A stretch of DNA of 7,982 nucleotides from a virus (Duplodnaviria; Heunggongvirae; Uroviricota; Caudoviricetes): the IMG/VR virus record IMGVR_UViG_2690316184_000004, positions 1 through 7,982 of that record. One strand, written 5' to 3'. The translations under genes and the position numbers were made by a program. Shown here one piece after another: positions 993 to 7,982 of the stretch. The notes below the pieces were generated by a model. That model ran no database searches and was not told the origin of the DNA. It saw only the letters and a program-made list of their open reading frames with translations. How positions within the stretch are numbered: position 1 is the first letter of the stretch; every line of letters begins with the position of its first letter.

Positions 993-1124
993 ATGATTTA
1001 CGCAATCGCGGGAGGCGCTCGCATGGGTGCCTTCCAACTAAATGAATCTTTACTTGAACGAATCACCCGTAAATTACGTGACGGATGGAAAAGAGTTGAG
1101 GTCTTATTATGCGCAATGAAATAG
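993..1124 (+). CDS. cIII: CIII-like small protein (lambda CIII family, inhibitor of host FtsH protease), 43 aa
   Basis: ATG at 993 preceded by AAGGAA (981-986). Product MIYAIAGGARMGAFQLNESLLERITRKLRDGWKRVEVLLCAMK contains the ESLLERITRKLRDGWKR core that I recall as the conserved amphipathic helix of lambda CIII. Below the 60-aa ORF-track cutoff. Sits where cIII lies in lambda, upstream of kil and the recombination genes. Confidence 0.55.
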   Translation: MIYAIAGGARMGAFQLNESLLERITRKLRDGWKRVEVLLCAMK

Positions 1125-1261
1125 CCATTAATCACCAGATGCTTCGTGCGGCACAAAACAAAGCAGTAATAGCCAGATTTATTGGTGATTCAAAAATGTG
1201 GCTTGAAGCAAATAAAGCGATGAAATCAGCTATCAACCTTCCGTGGTATCGCAGGAAATGA
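1109..1261 (+). CDS. Kil-like small protein (candidate host cell-division inhibitor), 50 aa
   Basis: ATG 1109 with GAGG (1098-1101) upstream; overlaps the cIII-like ORF by 16 nt in another frame. Product MRNEIAINHQMLRAAQNKAVIARFIGDSKMWLEANKAMKSAINLPWYRRK. The IA-FIGD-KM motif resembles my recollection of lambda Kil, and the position after cIII matches lambda order. Assignment from memory only. Confidence 0.4.
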   Translation: MRNEIAINHQMLRAAQNKAVIARFIGDSKMWLEANKAMKSAINLPWYRRK

Positions 1262-1416
1262 GTTTTACAGATAACTGGTCAGACGAAGAATTCATTCGTC
1301 AGATGAAAGAATTAATCGGTAACGAAGGAGATATTCATGTCACTTGCAACCACAGTGAAGGAGAGCAAGTTACAGAGGCGCATGTACACGCAGAAAGCTC
1401 TCTGGTATCGCCATAA
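1258..1416 (+). CDS. Hypothetical small phage protein, 52 aa
   Basis: ATG 1258 overlaps the upstream TGA stop (ATGA, 1258-1261), suggesting translational coupling. The only Shine-Dalgarno-like AGGA is 1 nt from the ATG, so the start is uncertain. Product MSFTDNWSDEEFIRQMKELIGNEGDIHVTCNHSEGEQVTEAHVHAESSLVSP. Confidence 0.3.
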   Translation: MSFTDNWSDEEFIRQMKELIGNEGDIHVTCNHSEGEQVTEAHVHAESSLVSP

Positions 1417-2706: not shown

Positions 2707-3186
2707 ATGAAAATCTGCTCAAGATGCCATCAACAGAAGGAAGAAAGGGACTTTCAAATCAGAAGAGCATCCAGAGATGGATTAACTGCCGCTTGCCGGG
2801 CTTGCCTGGCTGAATACGACAAAGAGCGCGCGGGATTGCCACATCGAGTATCAGCAAGGAGAGAATATCAATCATCGGAACGCGGCAGAGAACGGTGTAA
2901 CGCAGCCAAAAAGCGGTTCATTCAGAGCAACCCATGGAAAAGAAAAGCCCACATCATTGTGGGTAATTTTTTGCGCGACGGTAAGCTAATCCGACCACCA
3001 CAATGTGAGCGCTGCGGATCAGAATGTAAACCACAGGCGCACCACTGCGATTACAGTAAACCTCTTGAAGTAATGTGGCTATGCAAAGCATGTCATGTTG
3101 AATGGCACAAGCACAACAAGCCAATATATCCAGACGAGGAACCAGTAACCCTCCCCTTCCCTCGTCACGCTATTCACGCAATTTAA
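2707..3186 (+). CDS. HNH endonuclease with N-terminal Cys-rich (zinc-ribbon-like) region
   Basis: 159 aa; GGAG (2697-2700) before ATG 2707. C-terminal CERCGS...AHHCDYSKPLEVMWLCKACHVEWHK fits the HNH CxxC...HH...CxxCH pattern. N-terminal CSRCH ... CRAC gives a second Cys pair set. Confidence 0.75.
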   Translation: MKICSRCHQQKEERDFQIRRASRDGLTAACRACLAEYDKERAGLPHRVSARREYQSSERGRERCNAAKKRFIQSNPWKRKAHIIVGNFLRDGKLIRPPQCERCGSECKPQAHHCDYSKPLEVMWLCKACHVEWHKHNKPIYPDEEPVTLPFPRHAIHAI

Positions 3187-3194
3187 GGACTTAC

Positions 3195-3743
3195 ATGAAT
3201 CACTTAATGGTTGACCTTGAAGCAATGGGCAACGGGCCATATGCGCCAGTTATTTCTATTGGGGCGGTATTCTTTGACCCGAATACCGGAGAAACAGGAG
3301 AAGAGTTCTCGGTAAATATCTCGCTTGAGTCATCAATGCGATATCGGGCGCGTCCTGACGCTTCAACGATTTTATGGTGGATGGAACAGAGTGAAGAAGC
3401 CAGAAAATCGCTAACCAGCAACACTCAAGAGCTTTCAACGGCTCTTTCATGGTTATCTGAATTCATCATAAAGAACGCCAACCACAAACTCGTTCAGGTT
3501 TGGGGGAATGGAGCATCATTTGACTGCGTTATTCTCCGCAACAGTTATTCGCTGACAGGGCAGCCAGTTCCGTGGCAGTGGTGGAATGACCGCGACGTAA
3601 GAACAATCGTCGAACTTGGGAAGGTAATAGGATTCGATCCTAAGCGAGATATGCCATTCAAAGGAACTCGCCACAACGCGCTTGATGATGCCATCCACCA
3701 AGCCAAATACGTTTCAGCGATCTGGAAAAAGTTAGCTAAATAA
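3195..3743 (+). CDS. DEDDh-type 3'-5' exonuclease (DnaQ-like fold; resembles the Rv2179c-like exonuclease family found in prophages)
   Basis: Start chosen at ATG 3195 (AAGGAC at 3185-3190) rather than the overlapping 3102 extension. Motif I MVDLEAMG (D-x-E), motif II GNGASFDCVIL (Asp), motif III GTRHNALDDAIHQAKY (His...Asp). Confidence 0.8.
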   Translation: MNHLMVDLEAMGNGPYAPVISIGAVFFDPNTGETGEEFSVNISLESSMRYRARPDASTILWWMEQSEEARKSLTSNTQELSTALSWLSEFIIKNANHKLVQVWGNGASFDCVILRNSYSLTGQPVPWQWWNDRDVRTIVELGKVIGFDPKRDMPFKGTRHNALDDAIHQAKYVSAIWKKLAK

Positions 3744-6004: not shown

Positions 6005-6205
6005 ATGCAACACGAACTACAACCTGATTCACTGGTTGATTTGAAATTCATCATGGCCGATACTGGCTTTGGTAAAACCTTCATCTATGACCGGATTAAG
6101 TCCGGCGACCTGCCAAAAGCCAAAGTTATCCACGGTCGAGCAAGATGGTTATATCGTGACCATTGTGAATTCAAAAATAAGCTCTTAAGCCGCGCCAATG
6201 GGTAA
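6005..6205 (+). CDS. AlpA/Xis-like prophage DNA-binding protein (excisionase or transcriptional regulator family)
   Basis: 66 aa; GGAGA (5991-5995) upstream of ATG 6005. FIMADTGFGKTFIYDRIKSGDLPKAKVIHGRARWLYRDHCEF fits the AlpA-family pattern (helix-turn-helix, tG.s.stIY..i..G.FP, conserved Trp). Last gene of the phage operon, where xis sits in lambdoid phages. Confidence 0.7.
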   Translation: MQHELQPDSLVDLKFIMADTGFGKTFIYDRIKSGDLPKAKVIHGRARWLYRDHCEFKNKLLSRANG

Positions 6206-6221
6206 AATAGCGGGTAAAATA
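6200..6221 (+). repeat. Tandem direct repeat GGGTAAAATA x2 (12-bp period) overlapping the AlpA-like stop codon
   Basis: GGGTAAAATA at 6200-6209 and again at 6212-6221, separated by GC. Each copy contains a -10-like TAAAAT. Confidence 0.4.
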
Positions 6222-6254
6222 TTTCTCACATCTAAAAAACACCATTCCAATCAA

Positions 6255-6288
6255 TCCCCTGCTGCTTCAAGTAGATGTCTGCAGGGGA
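6255..6288. repeat. 8-bp inverted repeat TCCCCTGC / GCAGGGGA with 18-nt spacer
   Basis: TCCCCTGC (6255-6262) is the exact reverse complement of GCAGGGGA (6281-6288). No U-tract follows on either strand. Confidence 0.35.
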
Positions 6289-6681
6289 CACCAGATACCC
6301 TTCAAACGAAATCTACCTTCACCCCGTAAAAGATGGGTTTGGCAGCACACTTGCCTTATATCTACTCATTTTTACTGCAACAGGTTGAAATCTCAGCACT
6401 GTCAGAAAGCGCTGATGACTAAACAGCCCTGAGCCGGGCGATGTAACCATCACACAGAATCCTGATAGCGAAATATGGCGTGACTCGATACTTCACTCCG
6501 CAATGCATTCCTTGATGAATTCGCAGGACCGTGATACACGGGACAGGTCACTGAATGACGACAATGTCCTGGAAATCAGCGAACCGCGCATCTGAAGTAC
6601 ATTTGAGCGACTGTACCAGAACATGAATGAGGCGTTTGGATTAGGCGATTATTAGCAGGGCTAAGCATTTTACTATTATTA

Positions 6682-6725
6682 TTTTCCGGTTGAGGGATAT
6701 AGAGCTATCGACAACAACCGGAAAA
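6682..6725. repeat. 11-bp perfect inverted repeat TTTTCCGGTTG / CAACCGGAAAA with 22-nt spacer, 10 bp from the transporter stop codon
   Basis: TTTTCCGGTTG (6682-6692) and CAACCGGAAAA (6715-6725) are exact reverse complements. The T/A runs are part of the stem, not a 3' U-tract, so it is not a canonical intrinsic terminator on either strand. Confidence 0.4.
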
Positions 6726-6734
6726 AGTTTACGT

Positions 6735-7982
6735 CTATATTGCTGAAGGTACAGGCGTTTCCATAACTATTTGCTCGCGTTTTTTACTCAAGAAGAAAAT
6801 GCCAAATAGCAACATCAGGCAGACAATACCCGAAATTGCGAAGAAAACTGTCTGGTAGCCTGCGTGGTCAAAGAGTATCCCAGTCGGCGTTGAAAGCAGC
6901 ACAATCCCAAGCGAACTGGCAATTTGAAAACCAATCAGAAAGATCGTCGACGACAGGCGCTTATCAAAGTTTGCCACGCTGTATTTGAAGACGGATATGA
7001 CACAAAGTGGAACCTCAATGGCATGTAACAACTTCACTAATGAAATAATCCAGGGGTTAACGAACAGCGCGCAGGAAAGGATACGCAACGCCATAATCAC
7101 AACTCCGATAAGTAATGCATTTTTTGGCCCTACCCGATTCACAAAGAAAGGAATAATCGCCATGCACAGCGCTTCGAGTACCACCTGGAATGAGTTGAGA
7201 TAACCATACAGGCGCGTTCCTACATCGTGTGATTCGAATAAACCTGCATAAAAGACAGGAAAAAGTTGTTGATCAAAAATGTTATAGAAAGACCACGTCC
7301 CCACAATAAATATGACGAAAACCCAGAAGTTTCGATCCTTGAAAACTGCGATAAAATCCTCTTTTTTTACCCCTCCCGCATCTGCCGCTACGCACTGGTG
7401 ATCCTTATCTTTAAAACGCATGTTGATCATCATAAATACAGCGCCAAATAGCGAGACCAACCAGAAGTTGATATGGGGACTGATACTAAAAAATATGCCG
7501 GCAAAGAACGCGCCAATAGCATAGCCAAAAGATCCCCAGGCGCGCGCTGTTCCATATTCGAAATGAAAATTTCGCGCCATTTTTTCGGTGAAGCTATCAA
7601 GCAAACCGCATCCCGCCAGATACCCCAAGCCAAAAAATAGCGCCCCCGGAATTAGACCTACAGAAAAATTGCTTTGCAGTAACGGTTCATAAACGTAAAT
7701 CATAAACGGTCCGGTCAAGACCAGGATGAAACTCATACACCAGATGAGCGGTTTCTTCAGACCGAGTTTATCCTGAACGATGCCGTAGAACATCATAAAT
7801 AGAATGCTGGTAAACTGGTTGACCGAATAAAGTGTACCTAATTCCGTCCCTGTCAACCCTAGATGTCCTTTCAGCCAAATAGCGTATAACGACCACCACA
7901 GCGACCAGGAAATAAAAAAGAGAAATGAGTAACTGGATGCAAAACGATAGTACGCATTTCTGAATGGAATATTCAGTGCCAT
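6735..7982 (-). CDS. MFS transporter of the LacY-like oligosaccharide:H+ symporter family (substrate unknown)
   Basis: 415-aa ORF on the - strand with ATG at the very window edge (7980-7982), stop TAG at 6735-6737. Highly hydrophobic with about 12 predicted TM segments. N-terminal NAYYRFASSYSFLFFISWSLWWSLYAIWL parallels LacY [28 protein letters not shown]. The true start may lie beyond the window. Confidence 0.85.
   Translation of the reverse strand: MALNIPFRNAYYRFASSYSFLFFISWSLWWSLYAIWLKGHLGLTGTELGTLYSVNQFTSILFMMFYGIVQDKLGLKKPLIWCMSFILVLTGPFMIYVYEPLLQSNFSVGLIPGALFFGLGYLAGCGLLDSFTEKMARNFHFEYGTARAWGSFGYAIGAFFAGIFFSISPHINFWLVSLFGAVFMMINMRFKDKDHQCVAADAGGVKKEDFIAVFKDRNFWVFVIFIVGTWSFYNIFDQQLFPVFYAGLFESHDVGTRLYGYLNSFQVVLEALCMAIIPFFVNRVGPKNALLIGVVIMALRILSCALFVNPWIISLVKLLHAIEVPLCVISVFKYSVANFDKRLSSTIFLIGFQIASSLGIVLLSTPTGILFDHAGYQTVFFAISGIVCLMLLFGIFFLSKKREQIVMETPVPSAI

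Follow-up and report, generated by a model that had tools for sequence, protein, structure and literature searches.

In phage lambda, cIII occupies a position in the pL operon directly upstream of kil and overlaps it, with kil as the next gene, and the same layout is found in Sf6, HK97 and HK022. Translation of lambda cIII is controlled by mRNA structures. In P22 the small acidic peptide Arf (accessory recombination function) is encoded between kil and the annealing-protein gene, and stimulates Erf-type recombination. A 24-residue amphipathic region of lambda CIII (residues 14-37, including R32) is essential and sufficient for activity, and this core binds and competitively inhibits the FtsH protease, whereby CII is stabilised and lysogeny favoured (PMC1838920). 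The helix-turn-helix core of lambda Kil, with its Gly-Asp turn, mediates ZipA-dependent disruption of the FtsZ ring, leading to filamentation during lytic growth or induction (PMC3961180, PMC11762379).

Gene content of the gap upstream of the annealing-protein gene

We analysed a 546 bp gap between gene 1 (1-969) and a Rad52-family gene (1516-2223) in a stretch of 7,982 nucleotides, here called the window. Four small genes are packed into this gap on the + strand: cIII, kil, a gp30-like ORF (ORF3) and a gp29/HkaM-like ORF (ORF4). An earlier note had placed three micro-ORFs with coupled or overlapping junctions here, and the ATG ORFs it described are present at 993-1124 (43 aa), 1109-1261 (50 aa) and 1258-1416 (52 aa); 16 nt are common to the first two, and a single ATGA (1258-1261) contains both the kil stop and the ORF3 start. 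A fourth and better conserved ATG ORF at 1337-1507 (56 aa) had been overlooked. The features referred to below are as follows.

1-969, + strand: upstream coiled-coil protein of 322 aa, Sf6 gp33-like, bounding the gap; such proteins are often mis-named TolA
993-1124, + strand: cIII, 43-aa predicted FtsH-inhibitory lysogeny factor CIII (Pfam PF02061, PHROG 550, lambda alignment)
1109-1261, + strand: kil, 50-aa predicted cell-division inhibitor of the HK022/HK97/Sf6 type (Pfam PF06301, PHROG 2055)
1258-1416, + strand: ORF3, 52-aa small protein, Sf6 gp30/HK97 gp42.1-like (PHROG 2123)
1337-1507, + strand: ORF4, 56-aa predicted helical-hairpin protein of the Sf6 gp29/HK97 gp42/HK620 HkaM family (PHROG 1723)
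1516-2223, + strand: single-strand annealing protein of the Rad52/Rad22 family, Sf6 gp28-like (Pfam PF04098, 4.9e-26)
2224-2697, + strand: phage SSB with the C-terminus ...DDSDIPF (ORF list, Sf6 comparison)

The gap is very probably the known cIII-kil cluster of an Sf6-like prophage plus ORF3 and ORF4. On this reading the window would carry, on its + strand, the early-left (pL) operon of an Sf6-like/P22-like lambdoid prophage of E. coli, in which the four small genes are predicted to be translationally coupled and to stand directly before a recombination module consisting of the Rad52-like annealing protein, whose C-terminal domain resembles that of P22 Erf, followed by SSB. No terminator-like sites were found in 850-1650, in keeping with operon continuity, and scanning the window end to end for tRNAs and Rfam families returned nothing. 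All four ORFs matched PHROG profiles over their full length; searches of these peptides with NCBIfam and PADLOC gave no meaningful match. When the 546-mer was randomised 5000 times under a first-order Markov model, at least three ATG ORFs of at least 43 aa arose on one strand with a frequency of 1.4%, and at least four with a frequency of 0.12%. The homology evidence for the small ORFs is far stronger than these ORF-count statistics.

The three ORFs had been presented as missed by an ORF track with a 60-aa cut-off. The ORFs are real, with all three frames kept and annotated as Sf6 genes 32, 31 and 30 and also in HK97 and HK022, but they are not unannotated novelties. In particular, cIII and kil are already named by RefSeq/PGAP and in the Sf6, HK97 and HK022 records, so the finding is correct but ordinary: the cut-off hides known regulatory micro-proteins that standard pipelines already annotate.

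CIII and Kil

Similarity to lambda CIII and Kil, the check proposed for the three peptides, was significant for the first two. The product of the first is by sequence a bona fide CIII family member, matching Pfam Lambda_CIII (PF02061) over residues 2-36 with 56 bits (cut-off 25.7; E 4e-15) and PHROG 550 at 1.6e-20. It is 69% identical to lambda CIII (24/35 residues; BLASTP E 1e-13) and 100% identical to Sf6 gp32, and in E. coli genomes it is WP_000638547.1, with the RefSeq name 'protease FtsH-inhibitory lysogeny factor CIII'. The AIAG N-terminal motif and the amphipathic core ESLLERITRKLRDGWKR are common to this protein and the 54-aa lambda CIII, as had been recognised from the core motif. Across the lambda essential region 18 of the 24 residues are identical and the equivalent of R32 is kept, while the last five residues change from LIDIL to VEVLL. 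With its amphipathic-helix core retained, the window CIII would inhibit FtsH as in lambda, judging by homology.

The observation that this ORF is shorter than lambda CIII and ends differently also held: it lacks 11 residues (43 versus 54 aa) and carries VEVLLCAMK in place of the lambda tail LIDILNQPGVPKNGSNTYGYPD. Positions 1044-1091 are identical to lambda cIII DNA at 48/48 nt, the ...LCAMK* end is common to the CIII proteins of HK022 and HK97, and the adjoining kil product is 100% identical to theirs; because of this combination the deviant short C-terminus reads as a recombination scar, with a core of the lambda/P22 type continuing into an end of the HK022 type. That end would be fixed because the HK022/Sf6-type kil start overlaps there. 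The gene thus offers a tidy example of lambdoid mosaicism within 43 codons, and we found no experiment on this exact hybrid 43-aa CIII in the literature searched. An 11-bp RNA hairpin is predicted (centroid structure) at 1010-1035 on the + strand, within the 5′ coding region of cIII, and the fold of 970-1060 has an MFE of -22.9 kcal/mol (z = -2.9 against 200 shuffles). By analogy, this hairpin is a possible counterpart of the structures that control lambda cIII translation.

The second ORF had been called Kil-like for its IA-FIGD-KM motif, which indeed aligns with lambda Kil, and its product is by sequence likewise a bona fide member of its family. It matches the whole 31-position profile of Pfam Lambda_Kil (PF06301) with 72.6 bits (cut-off 27.6; E 1.7e-20) and PHROG 2055 over its full length at 1.2e-35, and is 57% identical to lambda Kil over 30 residues (17/30), including the FIGD turn. 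The protein is 100% identical to Kil of Sf6 (gp31), HK022 and HK97, and corresponds to WP_001243355.1 (RefSeq, E. coli genomes) and to UniProt VKIL_BPHK0. It shares with lambda Kil (47 aa) a similar size, the IAxFIGDxKM core and the Gly-Asp turn, and with the helix-turn-helix core preserved it would by homology disrupt FtsZ rings and inhibit division. The two proteins differ at both ends, the window Kil having an N-terminus 7 residues longer and the C-terminus SAINLPWYRRK where lambda has WILILKLRSSKSIH, and PHROG 2055 is separate from 3924 and 2461. The C-terminal RSK/RSSK motif of Kil has been emphasised as important, and tests cover the lambda-type and HK629-type proteins only (PMC11762379). 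The basic ...PWYRRK end of the window protein differs from that motif, and our literature search found no experiment on the 50-aa HK022/Sf6-type Kil.

ORF3 and ORF4

ORF3 matches all 52 positions of PHROG 2123 (2.5e-41) and is identical to Sf6 gp30 at 51/52 residues, the single difference being A41 versus T. In the ORF list it begins at an upstream GTG (1243) and measures 57 aa, and it is sometimes annotated as the hypothetical protein WP_000010966.1. Its ribosome-binding-site spacing is poor, as had been pointed out, with AGGA lying 1 nt before the ATG, because its start overlaps the kil stop; translation probably proceeds by termination-reinitiation at the ATGA. An excess of substitutions at third codon positions of the ORF3 frame is limited to 1258-1336, where these positions take 14/27 and 12/22 substitutions against Pseudocitrobacter and Enterobacter-phage homologues and 13/26 in a third pairwise comparison, a signal that derives from two diverged homologues only. 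We infer that protein-level constraint acts only on the N-terminal ~26 codons, which include the WSDEEFIRQM segment. The tail, which overlaps ORF4, is variable and clearly unconstrained, and the N-terminal motif occurs with unrelated C-termini in Kapi1, HK140, BIS08P22, MII_001, L022 and L107.

These properties bear on whether ORF3 encodes a functional protein at all. It could instead serve to couple translation, passing ribosomes from kil on to ORF4 and the recombinase, or be a conserved boundary between mosaic segments that happens to be open, a reading we consider unlikely. Versions of 35, 36, 52, 53 and 56 aa with unrelated C-termini exist, constraint in the overlap and beyond it acts on the ORF4 frame, PGAP often leaves ORF3 unannotated, and the module 3′ of it differs between phages, all of which would fit such a role. 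However, the clustering of substitutions at ORF3 third positions within 1258-1336 recurs in three pairwise comparisons, and retention of WSD(E/D)xF(I/V)RxM at 39-45% overall identity and in varied contexts argues for selection on the ORF3 peptide.

If ORF3 is taken as a protein-coding gene, P22 Arf is a candidate relative. Both products are small and acidic, ORF3, like P22 arf, begins where kil stops and precedes the annealing-protein gene, and the two share a [W/F]SDEEFI N-terminal motif (BLASTP 6/7, E 0.013). PHROG 2445 'Arf' is matched at E 0.044, and in the public record P0012 an ORF3 variant of 61 aa carries the name 'accessory recombination function protein'. Against this, ORF3 had no match at E≤1 to Pfam PF17585, the family to which all P22 Arf relatives belong, the sequences are unrelated outside the motif, and arf and erf are immediate neighbours in P22, while ORF4 intervenes here. 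Divergent homology to Arf is therefore unlikely, and we do not claim ORF3 as an Arf family member on a profile-profile match (hhalign) of 16 columns and 9.9% probability.

ORF4 lies in the +1 frame relative to ORF3, overlaps its last 80 nt and stops 8 nt short of the annealing-protein ATG, with a good Shine-Dalgarno sequence (AAGGAG) 6 nt upstream of its start. Its product matches PHROG 1723 over the full length (9.4e-36) and is 100% identical to Sf6 gp29. Homologues at 33-82% identity occur in HK022, Erwinia Eho59, Enterobacter MII_001, Salmonella BIS08P22, Yersinia, Kluyvera, Serratia and Pantoea, as well as in HK620, whose HkaM is a true homologue (BLASTP 9e-10); a relationship of ORF4/HkaM to Arf was ruled out (hhalign probability 0.2%). 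Between 1417 and 1504, third positions of the ORF4 frame take 20/30 of the substitutions against MII_001 and 12/22 against HK022. Within the overlap they dominate in the L022 comparison (16/26), and the MII_001 comparison is ambiguous (14/8/12). We infer that ORF4 is the constrained frame through the ORF3/ORF4 overlap. The two ORFs also occur apart, with ORF4 lacking ORF3 in Kluyvera, Yersinia and Eho59, and ORF3-like peptides lacking ORF4 in Kapi1 and HK140.

In every locus examined the ORF4 homologue is upstream of a recombinase gene, usually directly and in one locus with an HNH insertion. That recombinase is Rad52-like in the window and Sf6, Erf in HK97, HK022, Kluyvera, Yersinia, Serratia and Pantoea, and Sak4/AAA_24 in HK620, Eho59, MII_001, BIS08P22 and L108. 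Among 80 IMG/VR loci the gene after ORF4 was Erf in 40 and Rad52-like in 39, with one lacking a downstream ORF of at least 100 aa; these viral-contig loci are all 100% identical in ORF4, so they are usable for a census of downstream genes and not for divergence analysis. A scan of genome contigs recovered 9 loci only, and PGAP had not called ORF4 in the three records inspected. The 90% cluster holding ORF4 also lists 'ERF family protein' fragments without similarity to it, which are best read as a clustering artefact and may have given rise to the misleading 'recombinase' label on ORF3 and ORF4 in PHROG and RefSeq phage records; we did not accept the PHROG annotation of either ORF as functional evidence.

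ORF4 most likely encodes a putative accessory factor of the recombination module. In HK620 recombineering, the boost given by the whole module, hkaM included, was fully restored by sak4 and ssb alone (PMC5928155). An AF2 model of ORF4 (pLDDT 92.5) has two helices; Foldseek against the PDB returned generic helical hairpins only (best E 1.4), and the ORF4 profile against PDB sequences found nothing credible (E 0.41). Across 52 sequences R14, A21, N46 and the C-terminal P-F are invariant, and of 13 distant representatives 12 retain the PF terminus; in the remaining one, a 149-aa read-through protein, PF is internal. The family appears as a helical hairpin bearing a flexible C-terminal tip that ends in Pro-Phe, often as ...(D/E)(L/P/C)PF. 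The SSB C-terminal tip reads DDDIPF in E. coli and NDYPPF in HK620 SSB, where it is required for Sak4 loading. Because the Pro-Phe tips resemble each other, this small Enterobacterales-phage family could conceivably act as an SSB-tail mimic or adaptor, a speculative and distinctly unlikely proposal. If it were true, ORF4 might occupy the pocket in which host genome-maintenance proteins receive the SSB tip, or might influence how the annealing protein encoded after it, of whatever type, is loaded, and the mimicry would explain an identical protein before three unrelated recombinase folds.

We consider it very unlikely that the four ORFs are relics of a decaying cryptic prophage, no longer expressed or functional. 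The window has no integrase gene beside the excisionase gene and the element directly abuts cscB, but attP of HK620-type phages is placed between int and xis, making their separation a normal prophage arrangement; furthermore, the four proteins are identical or nearly so to those of the viable phage Sf6, and the reading frames, overlaps and Shine-Dalgarno sequences are all intact. The prophage may nevertheless be defective, so expression of the small genes is not guaranteed.

That programmed +1 ribosomal frameshifting within the 80 nt of overlap yields a single 82-83-aa ORF3-ORF4 fusion is extremely improbable: HK97 gp42.1 is an in-frame 83-aa fusion and 82-aa fusion proteins are numerous in public data, but the former arose by two 1-nt insertions, the latter, which we rejected as frameshift evidence, have differing junctions scattered through the overlap, are mostly singletons from raw assemblies and are each explained by a 1-nt deletion (as expected of such deletions or sequencing errors), inspection by eye revealed no slippery or prfB-like site, and ORF4 has its own ATG and strong Shine-Dalgarno sequence and is present without ORF3 in other phages.

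Significance and comparison with related phages

ORF3 is called inconsistently by PGAP, and it is the better-conserved ORF4, uncalled in the inspected records, that constitutes the point of research value: it is conserved and accompanies phage single-strand-annealing recombinases of every type. It has an SSB-tip-like C-terminus and would be inexpensive to pursue in recombineering and phage-host interaction work.

The closest described system is Sf6 (NC_005344), in which genes 32, 31, 30 and 29 have the same order, overlaps and lengths as the four genes of the window and the flanks are also the same, with gp33 on one side and the Rad52-like gp28, SSB gp27 and HNH gp26 on the other (genes 33-26). 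Sf6 covers 62% of the window, the genes further downstream being mosaic. Unlike Sf6, the window element resides in the E. coli genome as a prophage beside cscB, and a 701-bp region of it matches 2201 E. coli records. The corresponding gene sets of HK022 and HK97 are cIII, kil, 42.1 and 42. Like P22 Arf and HK620 HkaM, both ORF3 and ORF4 are small and encoded between kil and the recombinase.

Four short genes upstream of the annealing-protein gene

The 546-bp gap between the end of the first long gene (969) and the start of the Rad52-family annealing-protein gene (1516) was found to hold four short open reading frames:

993-1124, + strand: ORF1, cIII, 43 aa
1109-1261, + strand: ORF2, kil, 50 aa
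1258-1416, + strand: ORF3, Sf6 gp30-like, 52 aa from its ATG (the ORF listing runs it from an upstream GTG at 1243)
1337-1507, + strand: ORF4, Sf6 gp29/HkaM-like, 56 aa, in the +1 frame relative to ORF3 and stopping 8 nt short of the annealing-protein ATG

An earlier note, made from the sequence alone, had listed the first three with coupled or overlapping junctions. All three are present, and so are the junctions, with a 16-nt overlap between ORF1 and ORF2 and an ATGA common to the ORF2 stop and the ORF3 start; as a complete list it fell short, leaving out ORF4, which overlaps ORF3 by 80 nt. Markov-1 randomisations of the 546-mer gave four ATG-initiated ORFs of at least 43 codons on one strand in 0.12% of cases, and at least three in 1.4%. 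No terminator-like site was found in 850-1650, consistent with a single pL transcript.

A mosaic cIII gene joined to kil

The CIII-like and Kil-like candidates of the earlier note were both borne out. ORF1 matched Pfam Lambda_CIII with 56 bits (cut-off 25.7, E 4e-15) and the CIII family in PHROG over its full length, and is identical to lambda CIII at 24/35 positions with ESLLERITRKLRDGWKR unchanged (lambda reference proteins were taken from NC_001416). ORF2 matched Pfam Lambda_Kil with 72.6 bits (cut-off 27.6, E 1.7e-20) and, again at full length, the PHROG Kil family; 17/30 residues are identical to lambda Kil and IAxFIGDxKM is kept. Sf6 gp32 and gp31, respectively, match these two proteins at 100% identity, as do RefSeq entries WP_000638547.1 ('protease FtsH-inhibitory lysogeny factor CIII') and WP_001243355.1 ('host cell division inhibitory peptide Kil', also UniProt VKIL_BPHK0), and a 701-bp region has matches in 2201 E. 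coli records. By these sequence comparisons both identifications are correct and the genes, already known and annotated, are not new.

The short length and deviant C-terminus of ORF1 relative to lambda CIII are real, and side-by-side comparison of CIII proteins showed it to be a hybrid, of lambda/P22 type through residues 1-35 (P22 C3 is MIIAIAGSARMGVSQLHESLLDRITRKLRAGWKRL). The stretch 1044-1091 (+) is identical to lambda cIII DNA at 48/48 nt inside an otherwise diverged gene. The end, ...LLCAMK*, matches that of the otherwise very different HK022/HK97 CIII (...LEALCAMK*), and the final cIII codons run into the start of kil, which here is of the HK022/HK97/Sf6 type; the Kil proteins encoded by the window, Sf6, HK022 and HK97 are 100% identical. 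The 48-nt lambda identity and the HK022-type ...LCAMK* end thus mark a mosaic junction within the 43-codon cIII; a lambda-type core has recombined with a kil module whose overlapping start dictates the CIII C-terminus.

Loss of the lambda tail would not be expected to abolish activity, since residues 14-37 of lambda CIII are essential and sufficient for it (Kobiler et al., PMC1838920) and 18/24 of these are identical in ORF1, with the R32 equivalent kept and only LIDIL changed to VEVLL. From work on lambda, the protein would act as an oligomeric amphipathic helix that blocks FtsH competitively, stabilising CII and favouring lysogeny, and would itself be degraded by FtsH (PMC1838920). We also noted a GC-rich 11-bp hairpin at 1010-1035 (+), just within the cIII coding region; the fold of 970-1060 has an MFE of -22.9 kcal/mol (z = -2.9). 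Translation of lambda cIII is under mRNA-structure and RNase III control, and the hairpin may be a counterpart of these structures.

ORF3, ORF4 and the recombination module

ORF3 is the counterpart of Sf6 gp30 (51/52 identical), which is recorded as 'similar to HK97 gene 42.1', and matched PHROG 2123 at 2.5e-41; PGAP annotation is uneven, some genomes having it as a hypothetical protein (WP_000010966.1) and others lacking the call. Its poor Shine-Dalgarno spacing, remarked on previously, is genuine, with AGGA 1 nt from the ATG. An ATGA stop/start overlap is the classical arrangement for termination-reinitiation. ORF3 is thus probably produced by reinitiation at the kil stop, and would need no canonical ribosome-binding site. 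Its N-terminus, MS(F/I)(T/A)D(N/T)W(S/T)(D/E)(E/D)xF(I/V)RxM, recurs after kil or other cIII-like genes in many phages with unrelated C-termini, varied lengths and differing modules downstream: in Kapi1 and HK140 the protein has 35 aa and is followed by a 102-aa gene and RecT, in BIS08P22 and MII_001 an HkaM-like gene and a Sak4-like ATPase follow, and in a Buttiauxella prophage it has 36 aa.

P22 encodes Arf (47 aa), whose molecular function is unknown (PMC12315714), between kil and erf, and membership of ORF3 in that family was considered. Both proteins carry [W/F]SDEEFI (E 0.013), PHROG 2445 gave E 0.044 against ORF3, and one public record titles an ORF3 variant 'accessory recombination function protein', but ORF3 lacks a match to Pfam PF17585, which is present in all Arf relatives, and profile-profile comparison with Arf reached a probability of only 9.9%. 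We therefore did not accept ORF3 as an Arf, and take it as a positional analogue with a short common motif.

ORF4 is 100% identical to Sf6 gp29, matched PHROG 1723 at 9.4e-36 and has an AAGGAG Shine-Dalgarno sequence 6 nt 5' of its ATG; PGAP left it uncalled in the three E. coli records that were looked at. Homologues of 33-82% identity occur in HK022, Erwinia phage Eho59, Enterobacter phage MII_001, Salmonella BIS08P22 and Yersinia, Kluyvera, Pseudocitrobacter, Serratia, Pantoea and Buttiauxella prophages, and the family takes in HK97 gp42 and HK620 HkaM (BLASTP 9e-10), the latter first labelled 'arf' by position and later described as an orphan of unknown function (Hutinet et al., PMC5928155). 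The family is unrelated to Arf. When 1.84 billion representatives were searched exhaustively with a profile, only 34 clusters were returned. R14, A21, N46 and the last two residues, P55-F56, are invariant in a 52-sequence alignment, and 12/13 distant representatives read end in Pro-Phe, the exception being a 149-aa read-through protein with PF internal. From the same alignment AlphaFold2 predicted with confidence (pLDDT 92.5) two helices, 7-27 and 30-51, folded as a hairpin, the C-terminal tip being less ordered; neither Foldseek (best E 1.4) nor sequence profiles found a specific structural relative in the PDB.

Codon-position counts were made against two diverged homologues carrying both ORF3 and ORF4. 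Substitutions concentrate on ORF3 third positions in 1258-1336 (14/27, 12/22, 13/26); in the overlap, 1337-1413, 16/26 fall on ORF4 third positions against locus L022, the comparison with MII_001 being ambiguous (14/8/12), and past the overlap ORF4 third positions dominate (20/30 against MII_001, 12/22 against HK022). On these counts the first ~26 codons of ORF3 behave like a coding region, in contrast to its tail.

HK97 gp42.1 (83 aa; L005:1405-1656 in the HK97 locus) joins an ORF3 N-terminus to an ORF4 C-terminus, which DNA alignment traced to two 1-nt insertions relative to Sf6. Many 82-aa fusions occur in public protein collections, each as a 1-nt deletion would yield (250 - 1 = 249 nt, or 82 codons plus stop). 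In-frame fusions of 81-83 aa (P0007, P0017, P0018, P0022, P0029, P0039, P0045 and P0049) have differing junctions; junctions are scattered over the overlap and most fusions are singletons from raw assemblies. P0029 was found on 36 contigs, so at least some fusions may be real alleles and not sequencing errors. Programmed frameshifting as their source is highly improbable and was rejected, given these scattered junctions and 1-nt changes, the initiation signals of ORF4 itself and an overlap in which no frameshift-prone site was noticed by eye.

ORF4 lies upstream of a recombinase gene in every locus examined, usually directly, with an HNH gene intervening in one case; it is also found without ORF3.

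Recombinase type following ORF4, by locus
Rad52-like: this window, Sf6
Erf: HK97, HK022, Kluyvera, Yersinia, Serratia, Pantoea
AAA_24/Sak4: HK620, Eho59, MII_001, BIS08P22, one Buttiauxella-type contig

Among 80 IMG/VR loci with an identical ORF4 protein, Erf follows in 40 and the Rad52-like protein in 39, no downstream ORF of at least 100 aa being found in the remaining one. One 60-aa homologue, identical in two genomes, stands before Erf in the first and before Sak4 in the second. ORF4 is therefore strongly associated with the recombination module, though not with any single recombinase fold, and is probably an accessory protein of that module. In HK620 recombineering the stimulation given by the whole module, hkaM included, was fully regained by sak4 and ssb alone (PMC5928155), so HkaM-type proteins appear dispensable for oligo recombineering as such.

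The invariant Pro-Phe of ORF4 is on a flexible tip, often after an acidic and an aliphatic residue (...SELPF, ...DELPF, ...GEPPF). SSB C-terminal tips look similar: that of E. coli is DDDIPF, and the window's own SSB ends ...DDSDIPF. The HK620 SSB tip, NDYPPF, is needed by Sak4 for loading (PMC5928155). Given this resemblance, ORF4 might mimic the SSB tip or serve as an adaptor, which we consider unlikely.

'Recombinase' labels on ORF3 and ORF4 were found to be without basis. The 90%-identity cluster holding ORF4 (P0245-P0258) also lists ERF-family recombinase fragments that have no similarity to it; judged by sequence, this is a clustering artefact, and one that may lie behind the 'recombinase' names of Sf6 gp29/gp30 and HK97 gp42/42.1 in PHROG and RefSeq.

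Prophage context and comparison with known phages

Further features of the window are:

1-969, + strand: coiled-coil protein, 322 aa, Glu/Lys/Ala-rich, Sf6 gp33
1516-2223, + strand: Rad52-family annealing protein
2707-3186, + strand: HNH-type endonuclease gene, Sf6 gp26-like
3102-3743, + strand: 213-aa ORF, apparently an exonuclease
6005-6205: TorI-type excisionase, right end of the window
6735-7982, - strand: oligosaccharide MFS transporter gene, which we take to be cscB

RefSeq names for gp33-type proteins include 'cell envelope biogenesis protein TolA', 'coiled-coil domain-containing protein' and hypothetical; TolA, as a name for the product of 1-969, seems to be an artefact of low-complexity sequence. 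The C-terminal ~55 residues of the annealing protein are nearly identical to the P22 Erf C-terminus (…TETDKKKLIERYQHDWQL…NELKQ.A), a common C-terminal domain thus being grafted onto different annealing cores. The HNH gene overlaps the 213-aa ORF by 85 nt and its protein ends ...EEPVTLPFPRHAIHAI, a tail that also comes after the tip, DDDIPF, of an SSB-like protein from a Kluyvera prophage (L023:2806-3276). Between the excisionase and MFS genes lie ~530 bp without a long ORF, in which no tRNA or Rfam hit was found; 6005-6735 presumably marks where the prophage ends (att). HK620-type phages have attP between int and xis, so the lack of int beside xis is a normal prophage layout.

The earlier observation is confirmed and its interpretation supported, with content already known and annotated. 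To it we add a fourth gene, the coupling of ORF3 to kil through ATGA and the mosaic origin of the short CIII, with a caution that PHROG and RefSeq phage records call ORF3 and ORF4 'recombinase' without foundation. What was established directly for the window is the family membership of the genes, their organisation, their coding constraint and their synteny. Sf6-like podophages (CurroJimenez, N7, Sf6 and IME10) match 62-66% of it at ~97% identity, and the gene order gp33, cIII, kil, gp30, gp29, Rad52-like, SSB, HNH, exonuclease is as in Sf6.
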